Source of the DNA: Mobula hypostoma
Taxonomy: Eukaryota
Assembly (NCBI RefSeq): GCF_963921235.1
Contig: NC_086097.1
Location: forward strand, 50,718,001 to 50,782,000
Length of the DNA: 64,000 nt
Direction: 5' to 3'
The first letter of the stretch is position 1; each line of letters starts with the position of its first letter. A program made the position numbers and the translations under genes. Positions 14,689 through 55,580 of the stretch are shown piece by piece. A model generated the notes under the pieces. The model was not told the origin of the DNA and searched no databases. It saw only the letters and a program-made list of their open reading frames with translations.

Positions 14689-14724
14689 AGTCGACGTTTC
14701 AGGCCGAGACCCTTCGTCAGGACT
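14689..14724 (-). ncRNA. Minimal type I hammerhead ribozyme motif
   Basis: Reverse complement reads AGTC-CTGACGA-AGGGTCTCGGCCT-GAAAC-GTC-GACT. Confidence 0.75.
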
Positions 14725-15835
14725 AACTGAAGGAAGAGTGAGTAAGGGATTTGAAAGCTGGAGGGGGAGGGGGAGATGCAAAATGATAGGAGAAGACAGG
14801 AGGGGGAGGGATAGAGCCGAGAGCTGGACAGGTGATAGGCAAAAGGGGATACGAGAGGATCATGGGACAGGAGGTCCGGGAAGAAAGACAAGGGGGGGTG
14901 ACCCAGAGGATGGGCAAGAGGTATATTCAGAGGGACAGAGGGAGAAAAAGGATAGTGAGAGAAAGAATGTGTGCATAAAAATGAGTAACAGATGGGGTAC
15001 AAGGGGTAGGTGGGGCCTTAGCGGAAGTTAGAGAAGTCGATGTTCATGCCATCAGGTTGGAGGCTACCCAGACGGAATATAAGGTGTTGTTCCTCCAACC
15101 TGAGTGTGGCTTCATCTCTACAGTAGAGGAGGCCGTGGATAGATATGTCAGAATGGGAATGGCCTTACACTTCCTCCCTTACCACCATTCCGGGCCCCAA
15201 ACAGTCCTTCCAGGTGAGGCATCACTTCACCTGTGAGTCGACTGGGGTGATATACTGCGTCCGGTGCTCCCGATGTGGCCTTTTATATATTGGTGAGACC
15301 CGACGCAGACTGGGAGACCGCTTTGCTGAACATCTACGCTCTGTCCGCCAGAGAAAGCAGGATCTCCCAGTGGCCACACATTTTAATTCCACATCCCATT
15401 CCCATTCTGACATGTCTATCCACGGCCTCCTCTACTGTAAAGATGAAGCCACACTCAGGTTGGAGGAACAACACCTTATATTCCGTCTGGGTAGCCTCCA
15501 ACCTGATGGCATGAACATCGACTTCTCTAACTTCCGCTAAGTCCCCACCTCCCCCTCGTACCCCATCTGTTACTCATTTTTATGCACACATTCTTTCTCT
15601 CACTCTCCTTTTTCTCCCTCTGTCCCTCTGAATATACCTCTTGCCCATCCTCTGGGTCACCCCCCCCCTTGTCTTTCTTCCCGGACCTCCTGTCCTATGA
15701 TCCTCTCGTATTCCCTTTTGCCTATCACCTGTCCAGCTCTCGGCTCTATCCCTCCCCCTCCTGTCTTCTCCTATCATTTTGCATCTCCCCCTCCCCCTCC
15801 AGCTTTCAAATCCCTTACTCACTCTTCCTTCAGTT

Positions 15836-15871
15836 AGTCCTGACGAAGGGTCTCGGCCTGAAACGTCGACT
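15836..15871 (+). ncRNA. Minimal type I hammerhead ribozyme motif
   Basis: Stem I AGTC/GACT, core CTGACGA, stem II hairpin, GAAA, loop-less stem III AC/GT, GTC cleavage triplet. Confidence 0.75.
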
Positions 15872-16424
15872 GCGCCTCTTCCTATAGATGCTGCCTGGCC
15901 TGCTGCGTTCACCAGCAACTTTGATGTATGTTGCTTGAATTTCCAGCATCTGCAGAATTCCTGTTGTACAGGTTTAAGGTGCTGGGGAGTAGCTACAGAG
16001 GAGATGTCAGGGGTAAGTTTTTTACTCAGAGAGTGGTGAGTGCATGGGATAGGCTGCCGGCAATGGTGGTGGAGGTGGATACGGCAGAGTCTTTCAAGAG
16101 ACTTTTGGATAGGTACATGGAGCTTAGAAAAATAGAGAGCTATGGGTAAGTTTAGTAATTTCTAAGGTAGGGACATGTTCAGCACAACTTTGTGGGCTGA
16201 AGGGCTTGTATTATGCTGTAGGTTTTCTATGTTTCTATGCTTATTCATTTCCATGTCTGACCTGCTGAGTCTCTCCAGCGTTTTGTGTGTGTTGCTCTGG
16301 ATTTACATCATCGGCAGACTTTCTCATGTAATAGATTGCTTCCTACTGGTTGTAGTATGAAAAATGTGATTCCTCGAGACAAGATTTTAGACACTATTGC
16401 ATTAATATTGGAAAAGAATTGTTA

Positions 16425-17066
16425 TTTGGGTTGAGAAGGTGAACAGCTTTAAGTTCCTCGGCATACACATCACCGAGGACCTCACGTGGTTTGTACACAC
16501 CAGCTGTGGGGTGAAAAGGGCACAACAGCACCTCTTTCACCTCAGACAGTTGAAGAAGTTTGGTATGTGCCCCCAAATCCTAAGAACTTTCTACAGGGGC
16601 ACAATTGTGAGCATCCTGACTGGCTGCATCACTGCCTGGTATGGGAACTGTACTTCCCTCAGTCACAGGACTGCAGAGAGTGGTGTGGACAGCCCAGCAC
16701 ATCTGTAGATGTATACTTCCCATGATTATAAAGACAGGAGCATAAAAAGGGCCTGAAGGATTATTGGGGACCCGAGTCATCCCAACCATAAACTGTTCCA
16801 GCTGCTACCATCTGGGAAATGGTACCACAGCATAAAAGCCAGGACCACCAGGCTTCGGGACAGCTTCTTCCATCAGGACATCAGACTGATTAATTCACGC
16901 TGATGCAATTGTATTTCTATGTTATATTGACTATCCTGTTGTACATACTATTTATTACAACTTACTATAAATTGCACATTCCACATTTAGACAGAGACGA
17001 AATGTAAAGATTATTACACCGCATTTATGTGAAGAATGTAAGTAATAAAGTCAATTCAATTCAATC
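16425..17066 (+). mobile_element. Rex/Babar-type LINE 3' fragment
   Basis: SFKFLGIHITEDLTW...FYRGTIVSILTGCITAWYG; ends aataaagtcaattcaattcaat. Confidence 0.85.
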
Positions 17067-18187
17067 CATTTATAAACACAATGTCCTATGTAAGTAATTG
17101 CAGTATTTTGTGTATCAGTAAATAAACACAAAATATACTTTACACATGCAGACTATGAAAGACTATGAAAAATGTCATTGTGCATTGACCACTGAAATTT
17201 TGAAAACCAATGTTAAAAATGATTCAGATTGCTTTAGATAAAATTTTCAGGACAAATCAGAACCACTCTATTATTTTAGCTCGATCAAATCTGCCCCAAT
17301 AAAGGTCTCTCCATGTACAGTGAACTTGGAAGACATTCAGAGGAGAGTCATGAGAATTTACAAAGAACATTAGTTACTCAGATAAGCTTGAAGAGCTGAA
17401 TCTGTTTACACTAAAGCAGCAAGGACTTAGAGATAACCTTATATAGATATTTATAAATTAATGAAAGGTCTGAATAGAATGTTGGTTTACAAATTTTCCA
17501 GTGTGATGGATTTGAAAGGGGAGATTTCCATGCATTTAAACTATGTTAAAGTAGGAATAGCCTGAATGTTTTTACCCAAAGTGTAGTGAGACTCCATAGG
17601 GTGTTGCCAGCTGGTGCATTGTGTTCTTGCTGTATGCCTTCAAAAGGGGCCTAGATTTGACAGAGATTGCATAACAAAGGAAAGACATGATTACCACATT
17701 CCATCAACTGGTTTTGAATATATGAGGGGTCAGAGAAATAGCTCGAGTGTCAAAGACACAAGAGCTACTGCAGATGCTGGAAATCTAGAGCCATACACAT
17801 AATGTGGTGGAGAAGCTCAGCAGGTTAGACAGCACCTATGGATGGGAGTAAACAGTCAACATTTCGGGACTGCTACTTCTTGTACTGATCCTGGATTTTT
17901 CTGCGGTTTTAAACTTTCCTTGGTAAGGTAGTACTGCATGGTGGTAGAGAGGTCAGGTCATGATTCTCAAGCATCATGGTTTAGTGGAAGCTGGAATGAT
18001 TCTTATACACAATTATCATAAAAACTATTCTGCAGTGCTATAGCTATTGCTGAATAAACATGTCAGCCCTGACTCAACAGTGATTTTCTTACCTGTGAGA
18101 TTGAGTGATCACAACTCCACTCCAGAGATTCAAACATAGAATTTACACTTACTTGAGCATCCGAGATGCTGTGCTTCATTAGTCCTT

Positions 18188-18830
18188 AGTCATAGTCATA
18201 GTCATACTTTATTGATCCCGGGGGAAATTGGTTTTTGTTACAGTTGCACCATAAATAATAAATAGTAATAGAACCATAAATAGTTAGATAGTAATATGTA
18301 AATTATGCCAGTAAATTATGAAATAAATCCAGGACCAGCCTATCAGCACAGGGTGTCTGACCTTCCAAGGGAGGAGTTGTAAAGTTTGATGGCCACAGGC
18401 AGGAATGACTTCCTATGACGCTCTGTGCTGCATCTCGGAGGAATGAGTCTCTGGCTGAATGTACTCCTGTGCCCACCCAGTACATTATGTAGTGGATGGG
18501 AGACATTGACCAAGATGGCATGCAACTTAGACGGCATCCTCTTTTCAGACACCACCGTGAGAGAGTCCAGTTCCATCCCCACAACATCACTGGCCTTACG
18601 AATGAGTTTGTTGATTCTGTTGGTGTCTGCTACCCTCAGCCTGCTGCCCCAGCACACAACAGCAAACATGATAGCACTGGCCACCACAGACTCGTAGAAC
18701 ACCCTCAGCATCGTCCGGCAGATGTTAAAGGACCTCAGTTTCCTCAGGAAATAGAGACGGCTCTGACCCTTCTTGTAGTCAGCCTCAGTGTTCTTTGACC
18801 AGTCCAGTTTATTGTCAATACGTATCCCCA
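18188..18830 (-). mobile_element. Rex/Babar-type LINE 3' fragment, relatively young
   Basis: Uninterrupted 162-aa ORF2 C-terminus (GIRIDNKLDWSKNT...RLYFLRKLRSF...HPLH...RKSFLPVAIKLYN); (GACTAT)n tail. Confidence 0.85.
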
Positions 18831-19722
18831 TTACGTATTCAAATATAACTGGGAATAATAATAGTTATCTGGCCAAAACTCAACTCCATTCACTTCCATA
18901 CAGATTATGGAATCTTGTGTGCAAGCTACCTGTTGCATTTAACTACAAAGCATTAATAGCTAGATTCGAAATGCTTTCGTTAGTCTGAAATGCTATAAAA
19001 TGTTCTGAGAGGGCAAAATCTGGTTCTTTTTTTTACAAAACAACTACAAGCAAGGATTACTTAAACAGATTAATTACTTCATTAATGTTATATCAGGTTG
19101 ATTTTGAATAAAGGACATAGAATAGATTTATGTCAAGATGATGTAAAACATTACTGTGATTATTAAATGTGTAAGATCATGAACGAATTACTGGCATTCC
19201 ATGGGTTACGTAAAGGCTAAGAACTTTCTGTAGCCAATTTCGCTGTAAATCAGTTTTCTAAAGAATTCACAAACATTCTTTTTCTAAAGTTTACCATATG
19301 TTATCGCTCTGCATACATTTGCTATAATTCTTTTATTTTATTGAATAATCACAGAAACACTACACTTGATTCCCTGATGAAACATTTTTTGAAATTAATG
19401 AAACATTTTATCATAATTGTTCCGAGTGTGAAAGTACTTTAAAAATGTTTGGTCAGATTTTTAATAGAGTTGGAACAAGGCCACTTGTTGATTTGTTTTA
19501 TTAATGCTTTGTGTGTTATATTTTAGTTGGCTTCTAACCTTAGTGTTAACCATTTGGATTTACCTGGTCTTGCAACAACTGACAGCCTAGGAGAGGGGAG
19601 GATGAGGTGATGGAAAATGTAAATATCTTCAACATACTTTTATCTGGTTTTGGACCAGGAATTTCCCTCTCTTCTCCTCACTCAGTCTCACCATTCTGAA
19701 TTGCACTCAACATGCCCTAGAG

Positions 19723-19802
19723 CAGGGGTTCCAAACCTAGGGTCCACAGACCCCTTGCTTAACAGCATTGGTCCATGGCATGAAAAGGTTTGGGAACCCC
19801 TG
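19723..19802. mobile_element. 80-bp non-autonomous hAT (Charlie-like) MITE
   Basis: TIRs caggggttccaaacct and aggtttgggaacccctg; perfect 8-bp TSD ccctagag at 19715-19722 and 19803-19810. Confidence 0.9.
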
Positions 19803-22677
19803 CCCTAGAGAAATTCCGTGCATCGTTTACCTCCCCGGCACTTTCCTATTTCCTCACAAACTGATGCCCTCAGATGTGCTTCTGTTTCTTGTCTTCTTCC
19901 CAGATGCTTGTATCCTCCTTGGCCTGAATGGTTCGTCGTAACTCCTGCCACGCAATCTCTCTCTGATCATGCCTTCTCTCCCAATCTCTTTCACGGGCAC
20001 TCTGATAACATTTTCTCTGCATTACCTTCCTAAACTACAATCTCTTCAACTCTTTTCCGACAAACTCTCTCTGATCCACAATCCCTTAGTTCTGTCTCTG
20101 CTTTCCTTGCCCGGACTCTTTTGCCCCCAAAGTCCACCCTGCCTGCCAGGCACTTCACAACCCGATGAACAGCAATTAGGAATTATATCTGAAATACGAA
20201 TGGTCTGCCTTTGTGAAAAGAGCAGAAGGCAGCCATCTAGTGTTACGGTTCAGATTCTCCACCAATTTAGGGCTGGTGTCTGGAAGGGTGATTAGAAAGA
20301 AAACCTGTCAGATCTTTTAATGAGAGATTTTAGTTCCATTGTGTATTATCTAGACTGGCTTTACCGAGAGCAATTACTGTCATTCCTTTCCCTTTCCTGA
20401 AAGGAAATAAAATTTATGGAGACACAATGTTTCAAGACAATCTCAACAGGTCAGATTTTGGAATTCTGAAACAAAAGCAAAACAGGAAGCCATCAGCAGG
20501 TAAGACAGCATCCATGTATATAGAAACTAAGTTAACATTTCAGCCTGGAGATGCTCTGTCAGGTTTGAGAATTGCTTAATATAGATTTTGACAAGAGAAT
20601 CTACCAATATAAACTCAAGGAATCACTTAAAATAGGACCAAACTGTAGCATCAAGCACTTTTCTTCTTTTCACACCATCAAAGGACCAAATCTCAAATAA
20701 CTTTGAATTCAGTAACCTTGTACAGATCCCCAGACGGTTCAATGAATAACATTGGGATTCAAAGTCAGAGCACTTGATTCAAATAATAAACAGCTACAAG
20801 TACCTAGTGGGTCAAACAGCATTTGTGGAGGCAAAGGATTGGTGAAATTTTAGATAAAGACTCTGTGTAGGAATGCGACAGGCATCCTTCAGCCTCCATA
20901 TGCACTTCTTTAGCTGCTGTATACTTTGAGCTGTTAATGTTTTTGTTTCACGTTCCAGCATCCACAGTCTCTTGTGTCTCCATAAATTTGATTTCCTTCT
21001 AGGGAGGAAAGGAAAGACATAAATTGCTCTTTGTGAAGCCGGGCAAGATAATACAGAATAGAACTAAAGTCTCCCATTAACATGTCTGACGTTTTTGAAT
21101 TCTGAAACAACTCAAGGTTTCTTGACTTTGAATCCTGAAATAAATGTTGCATTTGACTAAATGAACAGAAGTTAAATGAATCCATTATAATGAACAATGA
21201 AATATGGGGCATATATTATCATCAGCAAGAAGAATCAGTTAATATATGGGGACATTGTCATTTTCTTCATTTTAGTATGAATAGGATATGTTTTTTTCAA
21301 GCATTAGTAAAAATTTTCACTTCATCATCACCATTTATTTTATGGTAAATAAAGCAAATAAAACCTTTGCAAAATGGAGCAGATAAATTTCATTGTTACT
21401 AGCTGAAGTAAAATAATATTATTTCCCTGGAGGTATTTATTGATCTGATCTTGAAGAATGCAGAAAGCTTATTGACCTCTGTTTTATTCTAAGAATGAAC
21501 ACAAAACATAAAGTTATTGCATAACTCAGTAATTACATCATGCTTCTGTGTCATTTTTTCCTCTATTAGTTTCTGCATGTACTTTAAAGATAGGCAGCTG
21601 TTCAAAAGCCACCCTGCCTTGCTATATTTATATTCTAACATTCTATTATATTCTGAATAGGTTATTTAATATTTTACTGAAATCACAATTACCAATAGAA
21701 AAGAAGAAATCCAGCAAAGGGAAGAAGATGAAGTATGTCTTGAAGATACAAGTTCATTTCTTAAGCTTTACAAAGTACAAAACTTCTTCAGTTTGACAAA
21801 ACCAAAATATTCAAATTCCTTCCAGTGAAATTGTAAATGTATATGCTGTGACTTGTGCTACTAAATCACCATTAGATTTTCTGTGTGTAAACTTGAAGCA
21901 ATCGTCTTGTAATAGTCACAGTATAATCAAGAAAATACCATGAAATAAAATTACAAACAAGAAAAATTGAGATTTGGAGTATTTTTTTAAATGGATATAT
22001 TGGATGGTAAATATTAATTCATTTCTTTGCACAATTGACACATAATTATACGGTATGTGAGGTTAATTATAATGCATATCCAGATTTTCACTTCAACATA
22101 CCTGATGGCTTGTTGCAGTTCTCATAGTTTTTGTATTGGTGGCAATGGAAGCTTATTGAAACTTGGTTTCAAAGTAAACTGGAAAGGAATTGAAGCAAAG
22201 CCTATTAATTTCTAGGACAGGTTGCAGGAATTAATTTATAAACATCTCACCACCCAATAGTATAACACATTACTGAGGTCATGCTCCACTATTGGTATAA
22301 TCTCAGCCATTTCAATCAGAGCCATTACACACGTGGAGAATGAGTGCTTTCCAGTTGGCCACTTCGTATTTCAACAGACTAGAGAAGCACTGTAGAAAAG
22401 ATGATCATTTTGCTGTACCTGTGAACTAACTGACCCATTCAGATAGTAGCTATTAGTGTAACAATTTGTCGTTTTATTGACATATTTCTATCTTTGTTAT
22501 ACAATAGTTTGTACCAGTTATATTAAGAAAAAACTTCTCAACATCTGGAAAACCCAAGCAAGTTTTTGTTACAACACAGGTGGCTAGTTAACCCACTGGG
22601 CTCTTTAAGCATTCACATCAGTCCCACTCCTCACATTTCCCTGTGATCAAATCTCTCTCACAAGCCTATAAATTCCC

Positions 22678-22919: not shown

Positions 22920-22981
22920 TTCCCCACCAACTCTCCAGGCAGTAACACACACTAGGGACTTTACTGCAGCTAACTAACCGA

Positions 22982-26458: not shown

Positions 26459-26461
26459 GTT

Positions 26462-26462
26462 T

Positions 26463-26501
<39 letters not shown>
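26462..26501. repeat. (TA)n(TG)n microsatellite
   Basis: Seen directly. Confidence 0.95.
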
Positions 26502-35913: not shown

Positions 35914-38340
35914 GTCAAGTTCAAGATCAAGTCTATTGTCATCTGACTGTACAAGTAAGTGGTCCTCTGGACTGAGGTGCACCCACAGAATATATATCAC
36001 ACGCCACATAACACAAAATATTGCCATAAGTTAATAAAATATAACTTAAAATGCATTTAGTGTGAAACAGTGACGAGACCTCGGTGGCAGCAGGGTACTC
36101 ATTAGTCTCACACCCTGAGGGAAGAAACTGTTACCCAGCCTGGCAGTCCTAGTCCTGATGCACCTGTACCTCCTTCCTGATGGTAGTGGGTCAAAGAGAC
36201 TGTGGGATGGGTGGTAGGGATCCTCAACAATGCTTCAGGCCCTTCGTCTATAACGCTCCCAGTAAATGTCACAAATACTGGGAGTGAGACCTCAGTAATC
36301 CTCTCAGCAGTTTTTATGATCCTCTGTAGGGTCTTGAAGTCTGATGAATTGTGGTTTCTGCACCACACAGTGATACCGACAGACAGGACATTCTTGATGG
36401 TGTTCACGTAGAAAGTTGTCAGAACAGGGGGCAGAGAGGCTTGCACACCTCAATCTCCTCAGAAAGTGCAGATGCTGCTGTATCTTCTTGACTGCGGAGG
36501 AAGAGTCATGGTCCAGTTTAGATTACCCATTGTGTGCACACTGATGAACTCTGTGTTCTTCCCTCTGTTTGTGGCAGAGCTATTGATGCAAAATGGAGAG
36601 TGATTGACCTTGCAAACAAGAGGAAATCTGCAGATGTTGGAATTTCAAGCAACACACATAAAAGTTGCTGGTGAATGCAGCAGGCCAGGCAGCATCTTTA
36701 GGAAGAGGCACAGTCGACGTTTTGGGCCGAGACCCTTTGTCAGGGCTAACTGAAAGAAAAGCTAGTAAGAGATTTGAAAGTGGGAGGGGGAGATCTGAAA
36801 TGATAGAAGACAGGAGGGGGAGGGATGGAGCCAAGAGCTGGACAGTTGATTGGCAAAAGGGATATGAGAGGATCATGGGACAGGAGGCCCATGGAGAAAG
36901 AAAAGGGGGAGGGGGCGTGCCTTCCTGAAATCTGCAATGATCTCTTTTGTTTTGTCCATGTTGAGACTTGAACTGTTATTTTCACACCATCTGGCAAGAC
37001 TCTCTACCTCCTTTCTGTATGCTGACTCATCATTGTTGCTGATGAGGCCAACCACTGTTGCATTATCAGAGAACGTAATGATTTGCTTTGAGCTGGATCT
37101 GGCAGTGCAGCTGTGAGCCAGCAGCATGGACAGCAGTGGGCTGAGCACACAGCCCTGGGGGGCACCAGTGCCTAGCATGATTGAGCTTGAGATATTGCTG
37201 CCAACTCGGACTGACTGGGGTCTTTCCAGCTAGAAGTCCAAGATCCAGTTACAGGGAGGGGTGTTGATTCTCAATGAGGACAGCTTACCCACCAGCACCT
37301 GAGGGATGATTGAGCTGGTCAATGATCAACATCCTGGCGTATGAACCATCAATTTCTAGATGGTATAGGGTGAAGTGTAGTGCAGTGGCTTTGGCATCAT
37401 CAATGGACCAGTTTAAGCAGTAGGCAAACTAGGAAGGGTCCAGTGTACAGTAGATGGAATGTGGAATTTTATACGATCCATTACCAGCTGCTCAAAGCAC
37501 TTCATGATTGTTGAAGTAAGTGTCACTGGGCAGTAATCATTTAGGCCAGCTACTGCCACTCTCTTGGGCACTGGAATGATGGTAGCTGCCTTGATGCTTG
37601 TAGGGACAATGGACAGTTTCAAAGAGATATTAAGGATATCCATTAAGACCTCTGTTAGCAGGGCTGCACAGTTCCTCAGCACTTGACCAGGTATGTTGTC
37701 CAACCTTGCAACTCTGCACGAGTTTACCTGCCTAGGACTCTTCTCGCCTTGGCTACAGGGTGCCTGTTTCTCAGGGGTGAGGGGGCTTTTCTCGATGTCA
37801 CATCATTAACTGTGTCAAATCGCTCATAGAATGCATTCAGCCTATCAGGAAGGGAGGTGTTGCTGTCGTTGATGGTTCTGGCTGGTATACCTTGCCACAT
37901 GTGCAGTGTGTCCCTGGTGTTTCAAAGGCTTCTGTAAGTTTTCTGAGGACTAAGGCTTTACCTTCCTGATGGTAGGGGAGAGCGTAACTTTAACTGGCCT
38001 TAGAGTTGTCCTGGTCCCCCACTCTAAAGGTGGTGTCCCTTCCCTAAGCAGTGCACAAACCTTTGCAGTCAGCCTTAGTTTCTGGTTTGCCCTGGCACTG
38101 TAGAGTTTAATCACGATGACATCCTCAATGCATTTTCCAATGTAGACAGTCACCAATCCCGCATATTCATTATTGTTGATGTGATGAGTGTAGGTCCATC
38201 TTCCAGAATGTAGACCAGTTCTTATTGACATAAATACACAGACCTTCTCCACAGGCTTTGCTGGAGGTCACAGCATTTCTATCTGTCTGGAAGAAAATTA
38301 GGCCTTTTAGCTGGATAGCCAGATTTGGTGTGGTGTCCTG
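35914..38340 (-). mobile_element. Rex/Babar LINE, long decayed copy
   Basis: DNIPGQVLRNCA, KAATIIPVPK, LNDYCPVTLTSTIMKCFE, TGAPQGCVLSPLL, VVGLISNNDESAYR; (CTTGAA)n-like tail. Confidence 0.88.
36613..36917 (-). mobile_element. Solo Penelope pLTR fragment with mutated hammerhead, inserted in the Rex/Babar copy
   Basis: Homologous to 54057-54360; core reads CTGACAA...CAAAAC instead of CTGACGA...GAAAC. Confidence 0.85.
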
Positions 38341-38342: not shown

Positions 38343-40200
38343 CAGGGCCAGATTAAGCTGGTGCGGGGCCTGTAGCAGATGTTAGAAGGGGCCCTAAATT
38401 TTAAAAATGCACGTAAGTATTAAAACATAAATTACTTACTTGCATAGTAAAAATAATTCAATTTTTTCATTTGCTATACAGCCAGATAATACGACAATTG
38501 TCTGACACTTCAGTAATAGTATTACTTACATGTAGGTATCAATTTCAAATATCAAAGGTAACAAAACTACAATTTAAATGTTATATTTTCTATATTTAGC
38601 ATGAGCAAATTTGTTGATGATACTGGAAATGTCTATATCACTCAGAAGTTCATGTTCAATGCTCATTAGGGTGAGATTGTTCAATCTGTTTTGACCCATG
38701 GTGCTCCTTAGTTCATTTTTAATCCTTTTTAGTTTTGAAAATGAACATTCTCCACTGCAGTTGGTAACCATGAGTGACAAATAGATGCACAAGGCATTTT
38801 CTACATTTGGAAAACATGACTCCAAAGAATTGTCAGTTATCAAACAGTACAACTGTAACTCTACAAGGTCTTGTTTGGCGCCAATACGAGAAGCAAGATC
38901 AGTTTTCAACAGTTCAGTAAACTGCAACAATTCTTCATTAAGACTTTCTTCCGGATATGATTTAATAAGATTTGATGACCTCTTTAAGATCTCTTCATGG
39001 TGTAAATGACTGTAACTGATGAAGGAATCCAAAAACACCATTCACCTTTAGATAAGCTTTCTGCCTTTTTGACAGGGCAGAAAACAAGCCGTCAGTAATG
39101 GCAAGAAATATTCGGCTTTTAAACTACTGAGAAGGCATTTGAGATTCAACAAGTGGATCAAGAGTGCTGGAACCATTGAAATCATCATACGCACAATTTT
39201 CTTGTGTTTTCTTCGAGTTTGCTGTTGATAATCTTCACACTTAGTCGGATCCTTGGCTTTTTGCTCAATGTCTGAAAAAGTAGACCATATAGCTTGAATA
39301 TATCCATGCAATGATTCATAGGGTGCACAAGCTGTGTTCAAGTCTTGGCCAGAAGATTGCAAAGAAGCACTGGTCATTTGGAAATGCTGTAATACTTGAT
39401 CCCACAATATGACCATTATTCCTGTTTCCAACTTCATCATGGTTGAAAGTAGTCCACAAGCCTGTTGTCGACATTCTGCCTTCTGATCATTGTTATTTGA
39501 AATGTCATCCAAGACTTGTTTTATTGCAGAAAAGCTGTGTAAAAGTGCTTTAGTTGCATCTGCACGAGCTGACCACCTGGTATCTGACATTCTTTTCACA
39601 ATGGGCAAATGAGCACCACCATCAGATAATGCAGCAGAAAGGAGATCCAACCGATAAGTAGAAGCAGAAAAAAATGTGTACAGGCTTTCTACAAATTGAA
39701 AGAAAACTAATGCTTCTTGACAACATTCAGCAGCACATTTTCCAACCAAATTTGGTGAATGTGCAAAACATGGAATGTAATCCGCAAACTCATTCAACTC
39801 TTTAATTTGTGCTTGTAAGCCACTATACTTGCCACTCATGTTGCTGGCATTGTCATAACTTTGACCACGGCAGTCGTTTATATCAATGCCATTTTCCTTT
39901 AAGTCAAGTAAACTTTGAGCGAGCTGTTCAGCACTATGACCCTCCATATCCAAAAACTTCACAATTCTTTCATCTGGTCCAGACAGCAAAACATAGTGCA
40001 CAGTCAAAGTCAGCTGGTCCACATTAGATATATCTGGAGTAGAATCCAATGAAACAGAATAATACTTGTATTTCTACACTTCACCGATAATGTGATCCAG
40101 TATGCTGGATCCAATCAGATTGATGAATTCCTCACATGTTGTTTTACATAGGTATGATTTATGTCTCCTTCCTTGGTTTGCATGAGCATTTATACCATGA
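38343..40200 (-). mobile_element. hAT DNA transposon with disrupted (ZMYM1-like) transposase
   Basis: DSTPDIS, GQSYDNASNMSG, CFAH, SDTRWSAR and the hAT dimerisation domain (FPNV...NCSGECSFSKLKRIKNELRSTMGQNRLNNL). Split by frameshifts. One TIR-like end, cagggccagatta, at 38343. Confidence 0.88.
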
Positions 40201-41725
40201 AAACAGCAAGGATCCAACACACGCCTGCACACACATACTGTACCATGCAGCATGCAGCTCCCCTGACATGAAAACAACAGCGTTGCCAGATCGTCGTTGT
40301 CGTGGCGTGGATGAAATCAGAGTGTTGCGTTACCGGTAGGTACAAGGCAGTTTCTTTATTCGACAAAACAAGGTTACTGCAGGCAGAAACCCCTGGCAGA
40401 ACAGGTCTAACTGCTTTGTGATTGAGGCTCGATGTTTATTTGCTAAACACAAAGGACAGTTCATAATTACAAGTATAGACAATTCTTTGAAGTTTTCACA
40501 TCTTGCCAGGCGTGCTGAATTCCTCCAGCATTTTGTGTGTGATATTAGAAGCATAGTTAATGGCACACCAGAGGCATGTGAAAGAGAGCTAAAAGTGAGA
40601 TAGCAGTATGATACAAAAATTTGTCTCAGCACTTGAGTTATGAGTGTTTACTTTGGCTTCTTAATCAGTAATTAGACAAAATACAAAAGCATGCCATCGG
40701 AGGACTGAAATGGCTGATATGCCTCTTGCCCAAAAACCACACCATCACATTTGTCATTCACTATGAAACCTAAGCCAGTAATATTCAAACACCAAGGGAA
40801 TAAAAGCAAACAAGGAATCAACAAAGACAAGAAGATCTGCAGATGCTGGAAATCCAAACAAGAAATCAACAACTTACAGATAGGAAAGATGAAATCAACT
40901 TCACTTGCCCCAACACTGAACTGGACTCACTTTCAAGGACCCGTCCTCTCAGCTTCTTGTTATTTATTGTTCATTTTATTAATATGTATTTTTATCCTCT
41001 TTCTTTTTGTAGTTGCACAATGTTGCCTGTCCTGCTGCGTGCGGTCTTTCATCGATTCTATTGTGTTTCTTGTATTTATTGTGATTGCCCACAAGAAAAT
41101 GAATCTCAAGGTTGTATATGGTGACACAGATGTACCTTGATAAATATTTTCTTTGAATCTAAATACATACTTGGTTGTAAAGGATCTCCAGCCCTAATAA
41201 ACACAAGCAGCATTATCAACCATCAAATCGCTGTCAATGTGTTTGCAATGGAATTTATATTATGCACAAATACTTCGTAGATCTGTTTCTATCTCAGCTG
41301 TTTTCCATCTCAGTTCAACTCTCTTCCCACCCCCACCCAGCTGATCAGTATATGCTTTTTATTTTCTTGAGTTTACATTCTCTTAAAGCCAAACACACTA
41401 TTTGTCTCAGTCATTCCATTGAGCAAAGAACTACAAAGTACTTTTTCAATACAATACTCAAATACTCAAAGGCAAGGAGTTCAAAGCATGATTTTTAAGA
41501 AATTCATTTTAATATTTCGTACCCGAGTTACAGTACAACAGTAATAATAAATTGCAAACTTTCTTAGTGTCTAAGCTTGTATTAAAAACATACCACTGAT
41601 CAAATTCAGAAATGAAAGTTACATACAATAGTGTAAGAATTTTAAAATCAGAACAATCTGTAGCATTCAAATTTTCAATCTGAGTTTAAGAATTTTGCAT
41701 CTTCCAAAATTAAAGCCATAAAAAT

Positions 41726-43799: not shown

Positions 43800-44280
43800 A
43801 TAGTGAAGCACAAGATTCACCATAGGGGGACCCTACTGAGTTCAATCAGCACTCTGCATATTTGCCAACTGCATAAGATACCTACAACTCTAAGACAAAT
43901 ACCCAGCTCATGATGACCTGGCCTCATCACCAGATATGCATCTGGGAACAATGTAAACATCTGGTATAAGCAAACACAACCTGCAGCACAGAAAGTCTGG
44001 AAATACTATTATCGTAAGGGCAGACATTAATGATGAAGCGTAGCAACACCTTTAATGTGCCTATACACACTCTGGTCAATTGGGAGAAAAGATTATTTGA
44101 AGATCTAAATGTCAGATCTGACAAACTCATGGTCTACAGGGCGGCAGCATTCTTTGCCCTCCTATAATCTTTTGAGACCTGGATAACCCGCAGCATAGGT
44201 ACCATACATTTCAAGGCACTGAAGAATTACCACAAATATTGTCAGTTCATTTCCATGTTACTTACACGCCTAACACCAGA
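43800..44280 (+). mobile_element. Old RTE-type LINE fragment
   Basis: Remnant KLMVYRAA..ALL...ETW...HFKALKNYH. Confidence 0.55.
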
Positions 44281-44487
44281 CTCCTGAAATAGACAATCTA
44301 TTCCAATCCATGTCATGGAAGCAACTATAAGATTCAAGGATGTGCTCAAAGTCCTTGAAGAAATACAACATCTTAACTTACTCTGGGGGGCCTCTGACTC
44401 AAACACTGAAAGTGGAGGAGGAGTAAGCAAACCGTACTGAGATCCTCAAGGACATGTCTCTGGGATGTCTCTGGCATGCATGTCTCT

Positions 44488-47400
44488 GGGAGCTGAACAT
44501 CCAAGGATACACGGTGTATCGGAAGGATAGGAAGGTAGGCAGAGGGGGAGGCGTGGCTTTATTGGTAAGAAATGATATTAAATCTTTGCCCTCCTATAAT
44601 CTTTTGAGACCTGGATAACCTGCAGCATATGTACCATATATTTCAAGGCACTGAAGAATTACCACAAATATTGTCACTTCATTTCCATGTTACTTACACG
44701 CCTAACACCAGACTCCTGAAATAGACAATCTATTCCAATCCTTGTCATGGAAGCAACTATAAGATTCAAGGATGTGCTCAAAGTCCTAGGCAGAGGGGGA
44801 GGCGTGGCTTTATTGGTAAGAAATGATATTAAATCATTAGAAAGAGGTGATATAGGATCGGAAGGTACAGAATCTTTATGGGTTGAGCTAAGAAATCGCA
44901 GGGGTAAAAGGACCCTGATGGCAGTTATTTATAGGCCTCCAAACAGCTGCAGGGATGTGGACTACAAATTACAACTGGAAATAGAAAAGGTTTGTCAGAA
45001 GGGCAGTGTTATGATAATTGTGGGGGATTTTAACATGCGAGTAGATTGGGAAAATCAGGTCAGCACTGGATCTCAAGAGAGAGAATTTGTAGAATGTCTG
45101 CGAGATGGCTTTTTAGAACAGCTTGTTGTTGAGCCCACTAGGGGATCGGCTGTACTGAATTGGGTATTGTGTAATAAACTGGAGGTGATTAGAGAGACTG
45201 AGGTGAAGGAACCCTTAGGAGACAGTGATCATAACATGATTGAGTTCACTGTGAAATTAGAAGAAGAGAAGCTGAAATCTGATGTGTCGGTATTTCATGG
45301 AGTAAAGGAAATTACAGTGGCATGAGAGAGGAACTGGCCAAAGTTGACTGGAAAGGGACACTGGTGGGAAAGACAGCAGAGCAGCAATGGCTGGAGTTTA
45401 TGCGAGAAATGAGGAATGTGCAAGACAGGTATATTCCAAAAAAGAAGAAATTTTCGAGTGGAAAAAGGATGCAACCATGGTTGACAAGAGAAGTCAAAGC
45501 CAAAGTTAAAGCAAAGGAGAGGGCATACAAGGAAGCAAAAATTAGTGGGAAGACAGAGGATTGGGAAGTTTTTAAAACCTTACAAAAGGAAACCAAGAAG
45601 GTCATTAAGAGAGAAAAGATTAACTATGAAAGGAAGCTAGCAAATAATATCAAAGAGGATACTAAAAGCTTTTTTAAGTATATAAAGAGTAAAAGACAGG
45701 TGAGAGTAGATATAGGACCGATAGAAAATGATGCTGGAGAAATTGTAATGGGAGATAAGGAGATGGCAGAGGAACTGAATGAGTATTTTGCATCAGTCTT
45801 CACTGGGGAAGACATCAGCAGTATACCAGACACTCAAGGGTGGCAGGGAAGAGAAGTGTGCGCAGTCACAATTACGACAGAGAAAGTACTCAGGAAGCTG
45901 AGTAGGCTAAAGGTAGATAAATCTCCTGGACCAGATGGAATGCATCCTCGTGTTCTGAAGAAAGTAGCTGTGGAGATTGCGGAGGCATTAGCGATAATCT
46001 TTCAAAAGTCGATAGATTCTGGCATGGTTCCAGAAGACTGGAAGATGCAAATGTCACTCCGCTATTTAAGAAGGGAGCAAGGAAGCAAAAAGGAAATTAT
46101 AGACCTGTTGACATCGGTGGTTGGGAAGTTGTTGGAGTCGATTGTCAAGGATGAGGTTACAGAGTACCTGGAGGCATATGACAAGATAGGCAGAACTCAG
46201 CAAGGATTCCTTAAAGGAAAATCCTGCCTGACAAACCTATTACAATTTTTTGAGGAAATTACCAGTAGGCTAGACAAGGGAGATGCAGTGGATGTTGTAT
46301 ATTTGGATTTTCAGAAGGCCTTTGACAAGGTGCCACACATGAGGCTACTTAACAAGATAAGAGCCCATGGAAGTACGGGAAAGTTACATACATAGATAGA
46401 GCATTGGCTGATTGGCAGGAAACAGAGAGTGGGAATAAAGGGATCCTATCCTGGTTGGTTGCCGGTTACCAGTGGTGTTCCACAGAGATCAGTGTTGGGG
46501 CCGCTTCTTTTTACATTGTACATCAACGATTTGGATTATGGAATAGATGGCTTTGTGGCTAAGTTTGCTGACAATACGAAGATAGGTGGAGGGGCCGGTA
46601 GTGCTGAGGAAACGGAGAGTCTGCAGAGAGACTTGGATAGATTGGAAGAATGGGCAGAGAAGTGGCAAATGAAGTACAATGTTGGAAAGTGTATGGTTAT
46701 ACACTTTGGCAGAAAAAATAAACGGGCAGACTATTATTTAAATGGGGAAAGAATTCAAAGTTCTGAGATGCAACGGGACTTGGGAGTCCTCATACAGGAT
46801 ACCCTTAAAGTTAACCTCCAGGTTGAGTCAGTAGTGAAGAAGGCGAATGCAATGTTGGCATTCATTTCTAGAGGAATAGAGTATAGGAACAGGGATGTGA
46901 TGTTGAGGCTCTATAAGGCGCTGGCGAGACCTCACTTGGAGTACTATGGGCAGTTTTGGTCTCCTTATTTAAGAAAGGATGTGCTGACATTGGAGAGGGT
47001 ACAGAGAAGATTCACTAGAATGATTCCAGGAATGAGAGGGTTAACATATGAGGAACATTTGTCCGCTCTTGGACTGTATTCCTTGGAGTCTAGAAGAATG
47101 AGGGGAGACCTCATAGAAACATTTCGAATGTTGAAAGGCATGGACAGAGTGGATATGGCAAAGTTGTTTCCCATGATGGGGGAGTCTAGTACGAGAGGGC
47201 ATGACTTCAGGATTGAAGGGCACCCTTTCAGAACAGAAATGCGAAGAAATTTTTTTAGTCAGAGGGTGGTGAATCTATGGAATTTGTTGCCATGGGCAGC
47301 AGTGGAGGCCAAGTCATTGGGTGTATTTAAGGCAGAGATTGATAGGTATCTGAGTAGCCAGGGCATCAAAGGTTATGGTGAGAAGGCGGGGGAGTGGGAC

Positions 47401-47494
47401 TAAATAGGAGAATGGATCAGCTCATGATAAAATGGCGGAGCAGACTCAAGGGGCTGAATGGCCTACTTCTGCTCCTTTGTCTTATGGTCTTATG
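44488..47494 (+). mobile_element. CR1 LINE, about 3 kb, best-preserved copy; in L2HGDH intron, antisense to the gene
   Basis: APE endonuclease (GGGVALLV, YRPP, GDFN, SDHN) and RT (KSPGPDGMHP, YLDFQKAFDKVPH, KFADN) in three long ORFs; (TCTTATGG)2 tail. Confidence 0.95.
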
Positions 47495-49074: not shown

Positions 49075-50353
49075 TTGTTAGATGATAGGAAGGCCAGGAA
49101 GGAGATGAGGCATAATCGTAGCCAGTGGGATGATTTACAACAGAAAGCAACAAATACTGGACTGAAAGTGTTTTATTTAAATGCACGCAGCATAAGAAAT
49201 AAAATGAACGATCTTGAAATTCAGCTACGGATTGGCAAGTATGACGTTATGGCCATCTCTGAAACTTGGCTAAAGGATAGCTGCCATTGGGAGCTGAACA
49301 TCCAAGGATATACGGTGTTTCCAAAAGATAGGTTACTAGGCAGAGGGGGTGTTGTGGCCTTGTGTATAAGAAATAATAGTAAATCATTAGAAAGGGATGA
49401 CATAGGATCGGAAGGTGTAGAGGCTCTTATGGGTTAAGTTAAGAAATGGCAAGGATAAAAGGACCCTAATGACAGTTGTATACAGGCCTCCAAACAGCAG
49501 CTGGGAAGTGGATTACAAATTATAGCAGGAGATACAAAAGGCATGTCAGAACCACTGACATCAGTGGTTGGAAAGTTGTTGGAATCAATTGTTAGGGATG
49601 AGATTATAGAGTACCTGTAGGCACATGATAGGATAGGCCAAAACCAGCATGATTTCCTGAAAGGAAAACCCTGCCTGACTAACCTATTGCAATTTTTTGA
49701 GGAAATTACAAGCAGGGTAGACAAAGGAGATGCAGTAGATGTGGTGTACTTGGATTTTCAGAAGGCCTTTGACAAGGTGCCACACATGAGGCTGCTTAGC
49801 AAGAGAAGAGCCCATGGAATTACAGGGGAGTTACTAGCATGGGTGGAGCATTGGCTGATCAGCAGAAAACAGAGAGTGGGAGCATAGGGATCCTATTCTG
49901 GCTGGCTGCCAGTTAGCAGTAGTGTTCCACAGAGGTTGGTGTTGGGACTGCTGCTTTTTAACACTGTGTGTCAATGATTTGGACTATGGTATTAATGGAT
50001 TTACAGCTAAATTTGCCAATGATACAAAGATAGGTGGAGAAATGGGTAGCGTTGAGGAAACAGAGAGCCTGCAGAGAGACTTAGATAGTTTAGGGGAATG
50101 GGCAAAGAAGTGGCCCATTAGTCAGAGGGTGGTAAATCTGTGGAATTTGTTGCCATGAGCAGCTGTGGAGGCCAAGTCATTGGGTGCATTTAAGACAGAG
50201 ATAGATAGGTTCTTGATTAGCCAGGGCATCAAAGGGTATGGGGAGAAGGCAGGGGAGTGGGGATGACTAGAAGAATTGGATCAGCCCATGATTGAATGGT
50301 GGAGCAGACTTGCTGGGGCAAATGGCCTACTTCTGCTCCTATATCTTATGGTT
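49075..50353 (+). mobile_element. Internally deleted CR1
   Basis: EN start (YLNARSIRNK, ISETWL) joins directly to RT at about 49550 and to the 3' end at about 50113. Confidence 0.9.
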
Positions 50354-50444
50354 TTATATTGTCAATGTTGAAAAATATGCTTTCATATTATGGATTTCAT
50401 AGTTTTGTTCTACATTCAACATATATCTGAAATCTTGGGCATAC

Positions 50445-50602
50445 CTATAACATATTGCTTCTCTAAAATCATGCAGGTCAAAATCATAAACATTGTAACC
50501 TTCGCGTTTAAATGCCAAAACTGCATTGGGTCCAAGCCAGACGCTCCCATTCATTCTCGGTGTAAAGTGTACACCAAGAAAAGGAAACTTTGGATCTGGA
50601 AC
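50445..50602 (-). CDS. L2HGDH: L2HGDH exon 8 (158 nt)
   Basis: [36 protein letters not shown]...; ttttag| and |gtatgc. Confidence 0.97.
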
Positions 50603-50869
50603 CTAAAAAATAAAGGACAGCTTAAAGGATTATTATAGATATAGACAGGGAATTAAACAAAGACTTTCCATTTCGATAATCTAGTTCAATATTAAAAAAA
50701 AATCAAAGAACTGGACACAAGTTCAGAGAAAATGCAGTTAGTTAAATGGCATGGAGTTTAGCAGGTTAGAGAGCAAAGGCTGACAGCCTTTGTCTCTTAC
50801 TGCAACAAACCTTCCTCTTGTCTATAAAGGTTCTGCCCTTCACTTGAAAGTAAATATTTTCTAAACTTA

Positions 50870-51677
50870 AAAATTGGTAGAATTGCTGATAATGCGATAA
50901 TGAAGAAGGTTGTTGAAGGAATTAGCAGGCAACAGATCTGATGCATATATGGGCAGAAATATAGCAGATTAAGTTTAATCTGGACAAGTGTGTGATGTTG
51001 CACTCTCAGAGGTCAAATGCAAGGGGAAAGTATACAGTCAATGGCAGGATGTGCCGAGGGATCTTGGGGTCCAAGTCCATTGCTCCCTGAGAGTGACAAC
51101 AGAAGTAAGAGAGTGGTAAAAATGGCATACAGCAACACTGTCTTCAGTCTGGCCATGGAGTACAAGAATCAGAAAGTCATGTTTCAGATGTATAAAACTT
51201 TGGTTGGGCCTCATTTGGAGCATTGCGTGCAGTTATAGTCACTCCATTACAGAAAGAATGTGGAGGTTTTGGGAAGGGTGTGGAAGAGAGTCACCAGGAT
51301 GCTGCCTCGATTAGTGTGAGTATTAGCTATAAGGCGAGGTTGGAGAAACTTGGATTGTTTTTTCCTGGAGCGTTGGAGGCTAAAGGGAGATCTGATAAAG
51401 ACTTATAAAATTATGAGAGGCACAGATGAGAGTCTCCTTTCCCATACAGTAGAAATATTAAGTACCAGAGGACAAAACTTTAAGGTGATAACGGCAAGGT
51501 TTAAAACAGATGTGCAGGGTGGTAGAATAGTGACATTTAAGAGGCATTTAGACAGGTACATGAACATGCAGGGATTGGAGGGACACATATCATGTGCAGG
51601 TTTAGTTTAACCTAGCATCATGGTCAGCACTGCTATCGTGGGCTGAAGGGCCTGTTTCTACACTCTATTGTTCTGTT
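50870..51677 (+). mobile_element. CR1 3' fragment
   Basis: YKTLVGPHLEHCVQ and RLKGDLIKTYKIMRG. Confidence 0.8.
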
Positions 51678-52092
51678 AACAACAATTCAGTACGAAAAAC
51701 ATAATTAACCCAAGAGACACCAGATTCAAGTGCACATTTCTATTTACATTAACAATTTTAAGATCAAGAATATTTGTAATTCAAATATATAAACTCAATA
51801 TACAATTCCACAAGTACATATGTGCATCCAATTATTGAAATTTATAGTAAGCTTCAAGGAGTATAAAAGAGTAGTATGAAAACAATGTACAAAAATGAAC
51901 ACCAATTTATTTCAAAGATATATTTAAACTAAGAAATGGAACAGAATGTGAAACTACAATCAAACTATGCCATTTGTGAATGTTGAACAAAATGTGGAAT
52001 TGTAAGAATTTTAGAAGAATGTAAAAATATGAAATCTTTTATGAAATTAATCAAATCTAATTAGATTTATTAAGTGTATCTTAAATACTTAC

Positions 52093-52260
52093 AGGATAAA
52101 TGTTCCCTTTTACTAAATAGCGCTTCTCTGGTTTTAGCACCAGGTAATCTCCTCGAAAAGGCACTATACTCGGATCATAGCTACAACCAGATTTCTGTGA
52201 AAGCCTATCTGAATGGAGACCTCCACATGTCACAACATACCTGCACTGTATTGCAGTTTT
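52093..52260 (-). CDS. L2HGDH: L2HGDH exon 7 (168 nt)
   Basis: [21 protein letters not shown]...[25 protein letters not shown]; aagcag| and |gtaagt. Confidence 0.97.
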
Positions 52261-53067
52261 CTGCTTAAAAACAAAAAAACACCAATGAAATATACCAAAC
52301 AAACTGACATTGTGGCAAGTGTATTTAGATTAGCTTTTTTTGCAGACTTTTCCCTTAATTGTTTTTCAATTAGCTTTGAATTGTAATGAAACTAATACAA
52401 GTTCTTATTTATTAAGACCTATAGCACATTGGGTCCATACTATCTCCTAGCAAAGCAAAAGCATCAGTTTAATTTGCCCTCTCTATTTTCCCTGTAACCT
52501 TCCAATGTATTCTCTCTCAAATGCCCATTGACGCCTCTTTGATCGATGGATTCTTACCTACATAGTGAGTTGATTTACAATAGCCAGTTAATCTACCAGT
52601 ATATTTTTGGAATGTGGAAAGAAATCCACATGGTCATAAGGAATATCACTTTTGGGATTACCCAGAGCCCCATCACTGGTGAAGCTTTCACTCGTACCTC
52701 TGTCCTCTCCAGTCCATCAATTTGCAGCCTTCACCCCACCCCCACAATAAATTTCTGCCAGCCTTTCTAGTTCTGAGCTCTGCAAACAGCAATCCCCATC
52801 CAAACTGTGCTCACCTATGACCTCTTTTCTTGATGACTTCCACTGATTTGGTACCTTGCAATATGGTCTCAGGTCACACTAAATTTGCAAAACCCTAGAA
52901 GTCCTTCATTGAAAATGTAATTCTATGGAATTTGCCGTGAATCCCTCTTCTCAACTTGCACCAGCTCACCACCTGCTCTTATGAATTTTCTTGCAAAATT
53001 TAACTACATGCGTAACCATTGTCCTGATCTTCTAATGTCTCCTCAAAGCCTGAATTCTTGATTTATA

Positions 53068-53540
53068 GCCATAGAACACTATAGCAGAGAAAAAAAGACC
53101 TTCAGCCCATCTAGTCCATGCCAAACTATTAATCTGATTAGTCCCATTGACCTGCACCCAGACTGCCCTACATACTGCCCTCCATCCATGTACCATGTAA
53201 ATTTCTCTTAAATGTTGAAATTGAACCTGCATCCATCACTTCCGCTGCCAGCTCATTTCACACTTTTACCACCCTCAGAGTGAAAAAGGTTTCCTCATGT
53301 TCCCCTTAAACATTTCACCTTTCACCCTTAACCCATGACCTCCAATTCTAGTCTCACCCAATCTCAATGGAAAAATCCTGCATTTACCCTATCTATACCC
53401 CTCATAATTATGTATACCTTATCAAAGCTCATTCACCTATGCTTTAGGGAACAAAGTTTTATTCTATTCAACCTCTCCTTATAACTCAGGTGGTCAACTC
53501 CTGGCAAAATCCTTGTAAATTTTCTCTGCACCCTTTCAAT
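53068..53540 (-). mobile_element. CR1 3' fragment
   Basis: Reverse-complement homolog of 1-500. Confidence 0.75.
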
Positions 53541-54152
53541 TTAGCCCTTGTTGTGTATCAACTTGCAACAGGTTCTGTAAATTTATAACTCATTGTGATA
53601 CCTGACAGAAATTTACCCAAAAGTTCACACTTGCTCAAATACTAATGATCAGGTATATAGTATTTTCAGAAGCATTCTCAGACGAAGCACATCAAATATA
53701 AAAATATAAAATATTTTTTATAAAATATAAAATATTTTCAGATATAAAAATACCTACTTTCTAACAACTTGCTTCAACACCTACCACTGCAGTATGAATA
53801 TTTTTGCTTACTACAGCCATGATTGTTTGCTTTCTGTGGTAAGATGGAAAACCTGCGCTGAATAAAGTTCAAACTTTATCTTCTGTTTCGTGACAAGCAC
53901 ATTCCAACTGTCTTTACATAAAAATGAAGTCCTTTGAAGAAGGAAACTTTAACCACATACTGCATTTATGTTCCGATCTAAAAGTCCAAAATACATCCCT
54001 ATTTAGCATTCTTTGATGAAGATTCATTGTGGAGTTACTAGAGAAAAATAAAAAAAACAACAGGAATTCTGCAGATGCTGGAAATTCAAGCAACATACAT
54101 CAAAGTTGCTGGTGAACGCAGCAGGCCAAGCAGCATCTATAGGAAGAGGCGC

Positions 54153-54188
54153 AGTCGACGTTTCAGGCCGAGACCCTTCGTCAGGACT
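54153..54188 (-). ncRNA. Minimal type I hammerhead ribozyme motif (sense in L2HGDH pre-mRNA)
   Basis: Same 36-mer as 15836-15871, reverse complemented. Confidence 0.75.
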
Positions 54189-55544
54189 AACTGAAGGAAG
54201 AGTGAGTAAGGGATTTGAAAGCTGGAGGGGGAGGGGGAGATGCAAAATGATAGGAGAAGACAGGAGGGGGAGGGATAGAGCCGAGAGCTGGACAGGTGAT
54301 AGGCAAAAGGGGATACGAGAGGATCATGGGACAGGAGGCCTAGGGAGAAAGACGGGGGGGGGTGACCCAGAGGATGGGCAAGAGGTATATTCAGAGGGAC
54401 AGAGGGAGAAAAAGGAGAGTGAGAGAAAGAATGTGTGCATAAAAAGGAGTAACAGCTGGGGTACGAGGGGGAGGTGGGGCCTAGCGGAAGTTAGAGAAGT
54501 CAATGTTCATGCTTTCATTTTTTAAAGAAAGGGGCTTCCCTTCCTCCACTATCAACTCTGCTCTTAAACGCATCTCCTCCATTTCACGTACATCTGCTCT
54601 CACTCCATCCTCCCACCACCCCACTAGGAATAGGGTTCCCCTGGTCCTCACCTACCACCCCACCAGCCTCCGGGTCCAACATATTATTCTCCGTAACTTC
54701 CGCCACCTCCAACGGGATCCCACCACTAAGCACATCTTTCCCTCCCCCCCCTCTCTGCATTCCGCAGGGATCGCTCCCTACACAACTCCCTTGTCCATTC
54801 GTCCCCCCCATCCCTCCCCACTGATCTCCCTCCTGGCACTTATCCGTGTAAGCGGAACAAGTGCTACACATGCCCTTACACTTCCTTCCTTACCACCATT
54901 CAGGGCCCCAAACAGTCCTTCCAGGTGAGGCATCACTTCACCTGTGAGTCGACTGGGGTGATATACTGCGTCCGGTGCTCCCGATCTGGCCTTTTATATA
55001 TTGGTGAGACCCGACGCAGACTGGGAGACCGCTTTGCTGAACATCTACGCTCTGTCCGCCAGAGAAAGCAGGATCTCCCAGTGGCCACACATTTTAATTC
55101 CACATCTCATTCCCATTCTGACATGTCTATCCACGGCCTCCTCTACTGTAAAGATGAAGCCACACTCAGGTTGGAGGAACAACACCTTATATTCCGTCTG
55201 GGTAGCCTCCAACCTGATGGCATGAACATTGACTTCTCTAACTTCCGCTAGGCCCCACCTCCCCCTCGTACCCCAGCTGTTACTCCTTTTTATGCACACA
55301 TTCTTTCTCTCACTCTCCTTTTTCTCCCTCTGTCCCTCTGAATATACCTCTTGCCCATCCTCTGGGTCACCCCCCCCCCGTCTTTCTCCCTAGGCCTCCT
55401 GTCCCATGATCCTCTCGTATCCCCTTTTGCCTATCACCTGTCCAGCTCTCGGCTCTATCCCTCCCCCTCCTGTCTTCTCCTATCATTTTGCATCTCCCCC
55501 TCCCCCTCCAGCTTTCAAATCCCTTACTCACTCTTCCTTCAGTT

Positions 55545-55580
55545 AGTCCTGACGAAGGGTCTCGGCCTGAAACGTCGACT
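55545..55580 (+). ncRNA. Minimal type I hammerhead ribozyme motif
   Basis: AGTCCTGACGAAGGGTCTCGGCCTGAAACGTCGACT. Confidence 0.75.

Follow-up and report, generated by a model that had tools for sequence, protein, structure and literature searches.

Are the four identical, hammerhead-like sequences of 36 nucleotides (nt) on contig NC_086097.1 of the ray Mobula hypostoma a true ribozyme and, if so, can they still cut RNA where they now lie? We address this question within a stretch of 64,000 nt (positions 50,718,001 to 50,782,000 of the forward strand, assembly GCF_963921235.1; hereafter the window). Minimal hammerhead ribozymes (min-HHRs) have been described in the pseudo-long terminal repeats (pLTRs) of metazoan Penelope-like elements, or PLEs (Cervera and De la Pena 2014, PMC4209133), and an initial annotation of the window had placed the motif in that class. 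Our analyses indicate that the motif is very probably a minimal type I hammerhead belonging to a PLE of the Neptune/Nematis type that is very abundant in a ray-like cartilaginous fish, with the four copies being passengers on two young, dead insertions.

One motif in the arms of two insertions

The initial annotation listed four identical 36-mers, and all four are present exactly where it placed them (copies 1 to 4 in Table 1). No additional site appears in the window when up to three mismatches are allowed, and 100 dinucleotide shuffles of the window produced no match to the 36-mer. The covariance-model and RNA-motif searches that had been proposed as a check gave split results, i.e. a min-HHR descriptor applied to both strands of the window returns solely these four sites, whereas an Rfam scan of the window finds no hammerhead, its sole match being a weak and unrelated snoRNA (E 0.93). 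A degenerate search for the motif in viral contigs gave no matches.

The parse agrees with the core, GUC triplet, 4-bp stem I, short stem II and self-complementary, loopless stem III that were first described. Specifically, stem I of copy 2 has four Watson-Crick pairs (AGUC/GACU) plus one wobble, U15835.G15872, that the earlier description did not include; the core CUGACGA is followed by one unpaired A, and GAAA and GUC are found in all four copies. Stem II pairs GGGU with GCCU (G.U, G-C, G-C, and U.G) around the loop CUCG, and stem III is the palindrome ACGU, which forms solely between two copies. Folding favors the unpaired A after A9, which gives -7.0 kcal/mol, whereas registers lacking the bulge reach -5.3 and -5.6 kcal/mol. 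The predicted cut follows C17 and falls at the same position as in the initial annotation (Table 1).

The four motifs do not represent four independent events, as they are carried by the arms of two insertions, A and B, with two motifs each. In both insertions, two 3' ends of the element, each truncated on its 5' side, meet head to head with their 3' termini outward, and both have target site duplications (TSDs; 13 bp in A and 14 bp in B) and a tail of ~35 nt on one arm. One arm extends past the predicted cut by 65 (A) or 67 (B) nt and the other by 100 (A) or 100-103 (B) nt; this ~35-nt difference in length is the tail, which insertion A carries on its long arm and insertion B on its short arm. 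The target of insertion A is a CR1-like long interspersed nuclear element (LINE), and the flanks without the insertion align continuously to the LINE copy at 34270-33889 (82%). The copies in A and B lack the reverse transcriptase (RT) core, and no full or tandem copy is present in the window. The location in Penelope pLTRs that was originally claimed is, as such, only partly correct: the motif lies in the terminal 3' repeat of a PLE, but within inverted arms of two 5'-truncated copies rather than in direct pLTRs of a full element.

Across 428 shared columns, substitutions number 0 between the B arms, 7 between the A arms, and 13 between A and B. Ten columns distinguish the A pair from the B pair and none group the arms crosswise, a pattern indicating that both arms of each pair were copied from one source, or homogenised later. 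The two insertions appear young, shortened, and dead, and are probably inert. Identity of the four copies as a sign of selection can be ruled out, because 168 of 393 windows of 36 columns likewise show no variation among the four arms; copies this young are expected to be identical, with no need for selection.

All four arms keep sequence on both sides of the cut site, reaching 65-103 nt beyond it, and the template RNA was therefore uncut or religated. Twenty contigs of sequencing run X9 depart at 15935 with mixed continuations, and several joints fall at that position, so this end point recurs in the repeat family. One of the predicted hairpins located 3' of the hammerhead closes at 15934, near the ends of the tail-less arms (15932 and 15934), and the hairpin region (15887-15955) may be where the RT binds and initiates. 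Separately, the tail is predicted to pair with the segment right after the hammerhead, and few parts of the repeat are shared as widely as 15887-15955.

The host element and its relatives

The open reading frame (ORF) remnants found upstream of both forward-strand motifs encode a GIY-YIG endonuclease (PF01541; E 3.8e-5 in A and 8.1e-6 in B), and the motif follows its stop by ~295 nt on the same strand. A CX4CX2C linker is present in insertion B and in most relatives, A being truncated past the linker, while the CCHH motif has an intact CxxC in A and a change of the second C to S in B, with the histidines present. A CX2-5CxxC linker before the endonuclease defines the Neptune/Nematis type (PMC8557442), and the linker and CCHH motif mark the host element, as judged from sequence, as a PLE of this type. 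Among 16 longer relatives from 638 candidates, the closest are proteins of Mobula hypostoma and Hypanus sabinus (75-90% identity), followed by those of Rhincodon and Stegostoma. The element's protein is also included in three ray gene models (P0003, P0004, and P0012, i.e. mucin-2, divergent protein kinase domain 1C, and chitinase domain-containing protein 1), reflecting either exonisation or annotation error.

We looked at 80 metagenome loci (the best 80 of 526) chosen purely by endonuclease likeness. Of the 57 loci with at least 400 nt downstream, 12 have a strict min-HHR in sense orientation no more than 700 nt from the endonuclease and 0 have one in antisense; shuffled windows gave 0 of 1140. 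Most motifs of this strict scan correspond to the published Neptune motif of Acropora digitifera. A relaxed pattern matched 44 of 63 loci in sense and 11 of 63 in antisense; hence the strict scan alone was counted as evidence. When 13 motifs (12 distinct) are aligned, 91.7% of cells pair, compared with 7-42% in slid controls, and A15.1/U16.1 is kept in all 12 distinct rows. Within stem I, two-sided changes are seen at all four pairs over about three families, and none of 500 shuffles scores as high on cells. A second invertebrate-type PLE hammerhead family, with other stems I and II, lies ~105-110 nt after the endonuclease (L032:1241-1278 and L036:2358-2395).

Could the motif nevertheless be a chance likeness to a hammerhead within a repeat? 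The missing Rfam match and the relatedness of the four copies, which together make one observation, would be in line with this, but relatives selected by protein have the motif on the same strand and at the same position, shuffles have none, and the compensatory changes in stem I and the fit to the published consensus point the other way. Chance likeness is already largely refuted by the protein-selected loci and the stem I covariation, and we assign it a negligible probability. The initial assignment to Penelope-associated min-HHRs is upheld by the consensus fit, the adjoining GIY-YIG domain, and the covariation of stem I.

Sequencing-run comparisons covered 4 of the 24 runs listed. In one run, whose contigs likely come from the source organism, 148,168 contigs match 15500-15967. 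Divergence sets in just before 15836 in 609 contigs and just after 15872 in 529, i.e. at the ends of stem I, and homology resumes after a variable linker. Of 85 variant rows, 40 are shown, and the motif accounts for two of these: C to T at N7 (15%) and T to C at 11.1 (20%).

Predicted folding and cleavage at the two loci

Within an insertion the two motifs occupy opposite strands, which rules out their dimerising in cis, and the only partners on the same strand are ~39.5-39.7 kb apart. In folds of read-through RNA from either insertion and either strand, the motif pairs with the opposite arm (P at least 0.997), so that it would lie buried in long double-stranded RNA. In folds of a single arm, the core is taken up by an upstream segment (P 0.84-0.93), leaving stems I and II with a P near 0; the bare 38-mer instead pairs its core with the ACGU/C segment (P 0.98-0.99). 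All these models leave out magnesium and tertiary contacts. The models suggest that the motif is almost certainly silent at both loci, because the two arms pair with each other. The originally claimed fit to hammerheads that cleave as dimers is therefore a partial one: stem III does form between two copies only, but the partners within an insertion are antisense and predicted to be buried. A single arm would also be held inactive by its pyrimidine-rich upstream segment (15822-15851), for which pairing to the core and to the 5' strand of stem II is predicted (P ~0.9).

Published activities are also low. Min-HHRs are reported to need a second copy and to cut weakly, with low activity for the dimer of S. 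mansoni (PMC4209133), and a review credits dimer cleavage of many such motifs to Lunse et al. (PMC6765202). In PAc, the Poseidon of Anolis carolinensis (Frangieh et al. 2024, PMC11167929), the hammerhead cut only with its protein and was dispensable for insertion in vitro, and the anole RNA-seq described in that study had no reads ending at the cut site. These reports bear on whether the genomic copies act as ribozymes that cut host or element transcripts, either as trans dimers or in cis over ~39.7 kb. The motifs are intact, the high abundance of the family (148,168 contigs of one run) would make trans partners plentiful if transcribed, and runs guessed to be RNA contain the sequence; set against burial of the motif by the antisense arm or the upstream hairpin, activity that is low even in tandem (PMC4209133), and the missing PAc cut ends (PMC11167929), this makes for an improbable scenario.

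Origin of the insertions and the role of the cut

We favor an origin of A and B that resembles PAc insertion. The RT-endonuclease would nick both target strands, and uncut element RNA would be reverse-transcribed from two internal start sites, which would yield inverted arms with a tail on one side. In full tandem source elements the hammerhead would cut after GUC only when two copies pair via ACGU, probably aided by the protein of the element, and it is in these tandem sources that the hammerhead would matter, if at all. This reading is supported by the TSDs and the one-sided tail, which agree with the inverted-plus-tail anatomy of PMC8557442 and with the pair of RT start sites found in PMC11167929.

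Several points weigh against it. The covariation rests on about three related families, with rows that were picked by the motif itself, and the host assignment is to Neptune and Nematis jointly. Later gene conversion could likewise produce same-source arms. The 10.1-11.1 pair is G.U in all four copies, where the consensus has G-C; a C at 11.1 is found in 3 of 4 older relics of the window, which have G-C, and in 20% of the depth in run X1, from which the window DNA may itself derive. The G.U pair of the young subfamily speaks against a working ribozyme, although G.U is also found in published members, i.e. cichlid, X. tropicalis(1), S. mansoni(1), and C. sinensis(1) motifs (PMC4209133). In ViennaRNA the double hammerhead reaches -11.5 kcal/mol and the best dimer -30.3 kcal/mol; the active fold therefore needs help that is absent from the model. 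Run X21, the single raw-read run covered, gave 0 reads of the sequence, and the RNA-like runs consist of contigs, which cannot show ends.

Changed cores in older copies also speak against a working ribozyme in the family. A6 is essential for hammerhead cleavage, and it is replaced by C in both hammerhead relics of the inverted pair at 59.3-60.0 kb; the loose-end consensus from 17 contigs of run X9 has the same CTGCT variant. The shared change suggests that the source RNA of the 59280-60001 pair already had a changed core, and, judging from these sequences, a core variant with C at A6 may have transposed. Overall, at least four decayed relatives of the motif are present in the window, at 12509, 36712, 59290, and 59868. 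At 36.6 kb and at 59.3-60.0 kb, the older copies yielded no convincing TSD. In the small relic at 12509-12577 the inversion junction lies inside the hammerhead region itself, and short, old fragments of the tail region of the repeat are found at 17768-17839 (-), starting inside the hammerhead, and at 40823-40861 (-).

Changed cores are what one would expect if the hammerhead no longer needs to cut and persists as a structural landmark of the RT-binding/initiation domain, or as a hitch-hiker. Copying of all four arms through an uncut site fits this, as do the C for A6 common to both arms of the old pair, the CTGCT consensus of the 17 X9 contigs, PAc hammerhead mutants that had no effect on insertion in vitro (PMC11167929), and Naiads, described as spreading without canonical hammerheads (PMC8557442). 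However, coral-type and ray elements alike retain the full core and GUC despite two-sided changes in stem I, hundreds of contigs diverge at both ends of stem I (15836 and 15872), and just 2 of the 40 variants shown (85 rows in total) lie within the motif, at N7 and 11.1. We regard loss of the need to cut as a tentative alternative, with a real but minor share of the probability.

The ACGU of stem III might, as a more speculative idea, be mainly a dimerisation signal, by which two element RNAs would sit on a dimeric RT-endonuclease and both nicked strands would be primed at once, one per start site, with cutting being secondary. If true, this would explain the same-source, head-to-head arms, the uncut site, the tail on either arm, and the spread of a variant with C at A6. 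ACGU forms only 4 bp, and Naiads are described as making inverted insertions without canonical hammerheads (PMC8557442); we see only a slim chance for this idea.

Comparison with known elements

A passenger hammerhead of a Neptune/Nematis-type PLE has clear parallels in the published min-HHRs (PMC4209133), with which the window motif shares a CUGANGA core, an unpaired base before 10.1, GAAA, a loopless palindromic 15.2-16.2, NUH, a short stem I, and its position in the 3' repeat of truncated elements. The likeness is close to the A. digitifera Neptune motif (Fig. S3 of PMC4209133), which has the same core and ACGU/GUC. By contrast, the sequences of stems I and II are its own, and the opposite-strand motif pairs, reported as ~100-700 bp apart in PMC4209133, are separated here by ~1.1 and 1.4 kb. 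No cartilaginous fish is among the species in Fig. S3 or Table S1 of PMC4209133.

PAc resembles the ray element, in the origin proposed for A and B, in that both target strands are nicked and extended, two internal RT starts bound a tail of 30-40 nt, and uncut RNA is the main template (PMC11167929). It differs in belonging to the Penelope/Poseidon clade, which lacks the CX2-5CxxC linker (PMC8557442), whereas the ray element is known here from sequence alone; the target of insertion A is also not an AT-rich site. With the Neptune/Nematis PLEs of Craig et al. (2021, PMC8557442), the insertions share a C-terminal GIY-YIG with CCHH, the CX2-5CxxC linker, 5' truncation, an inverted copy, and a tail at one end, but there is no microsatellite target here and the duplications are clean (13 and 14 bp).

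Non-LTR retrozymes (PMC7229834; bioRxiv 10.64898/2026.07.22.740005) also have a type I hammerhead in a PLE-linked repeat. These are head-to-tail tandem units without an ORF (PMC7229834), whereas the window copies are inverted pairs with endonuclease remnants and no tandem units, which rules out a retrozyme identity. The retrozyme survey of the 2026 preprint took in one chondrichthyan genome. Our literature search (Penelope with shark, Mobula, or elasmobranch) found nothing on the family in cartilaginous fishes, and the motif may be listed by Lunse et al. or in the supplements of the 2026 preprint.

Other features of the window

Rich in repeats, the animal DNA of the window includes fragments of LINE RTs and of a hAT element (Table 1). 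The ORF with a PF09004 match is presumably the 3' end of another LINE family.

Within 15500-15967, A-to-G differences occur at 13 of 70 A positions in run X9 (a guessed RNA run) and at 2 positions in either of two DNA runs (Fisher p = 0.005 for X9 vs X1); T-to-C shows no excess. Four A-to-G rows are shown, of which one is family-wide and two travel with neighboring subfamily alleles; only 15884 stands alone (17% vs 2-2.5%). The excess may reflect A-to-I (adenosine-to-inosine) editing of double-stranded RNA or the make-up of subfamilies, the sample being different from the DNA samples.

Table 1. Coordinates of the hammerhead copies, the two insertions, older relics, and other features (position 1 is the first letter of the window; UTR, untranslated region)
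Feature	Positions	Strand	Remarks
min-HHR copy 1	14689-14724	-	C17 = 14693
min-HHR copy 2	15836-15871	+	C17 = 15867; predicted cut 15867/15868
min-HHR copy 3	54153-54188	-	C17 = 54157
min-HHR copy 4	55545-55580	+	C17 = 55576
TSD left of insertion A (13 bp)	14615-14627		within CR1-like LINE
Insertion A, left arm: inverted 5'-truncated 3' end (endonuclease end, 3' UTR, hammerhead), tail-less	14628-15162	-	ends 65 nt past cut
Insertion A, right arm: GIY-YIG remnant to stop 15540, pyrimidine-rich 3' UTR, hammerhead, hairpin, tail	15163-15967	+	ends 100 nt past cut
Predicted nested hairpins 3' of hammerhead	15887-15955	+	from fold; kept in older copies; among deepest bins
~35-nt tail of insertion A, long arm	15933-15967	+	
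TSD right of insertion A	15968-15980		
TSD left of insertion B (14 bp, A-rich)	54040-54053		
Insertion B, left arm: inverted 3' end with tail (54054-54089)	54054-54512	-	ends 100-103 nt past cut
Insertion B, right arm: RT-thumb/linker end, frameshift ~54730-54750, CX4CX2C, GIY-YIG to stop 55251, 3' UTR, hammerhead, tail-less	54513-55643	+	ends 67 nt past cut
TSD right of insertion B	55644-55657		
Older solo 3' end, same subfamily (86%), with tail	36616-36914	-	decayed hammerhead 36712-36747: G8 and G12 changed, C at 11.1
Old inverted pair, related subfamily, arms 81% alike	59280-60001		relics 59290-59325 (-) and 59868-59903 (+) read CUGCUGA, C for A6
Old small inverted relic	12430-12577		hammerhead remnants 12509-12544 (-) and 12542-12577 (+)
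hAT transposase fragment	38574-40073	-	PF05699 match in 38577-39041
Long broken LINE ORF2	44720-47403	+	RT matches; related pieces at 6-7, 12.4-14.6, 34-35, 49-50, and 62.6-63.8 kb
205-nt direct repeat, 98% identical, 432 nt apart	44151-44355, 44583-44787		
ORF with PF09004 match	18346-18864	-	

Implications for the element family

The ribozyme class has been known since 2014, and the window motif adds a ray example; the find itself adds little, and its value is the modest one of clean material. With their exact boundaries, the two young insertions preserve the positions of two RT start sites, each at a set distance from the hammerhead, and do so for a clade that differs from the one examined in vitro; the very high copy number of the element would allow a genome-wide test of the role of the cut in transposition.

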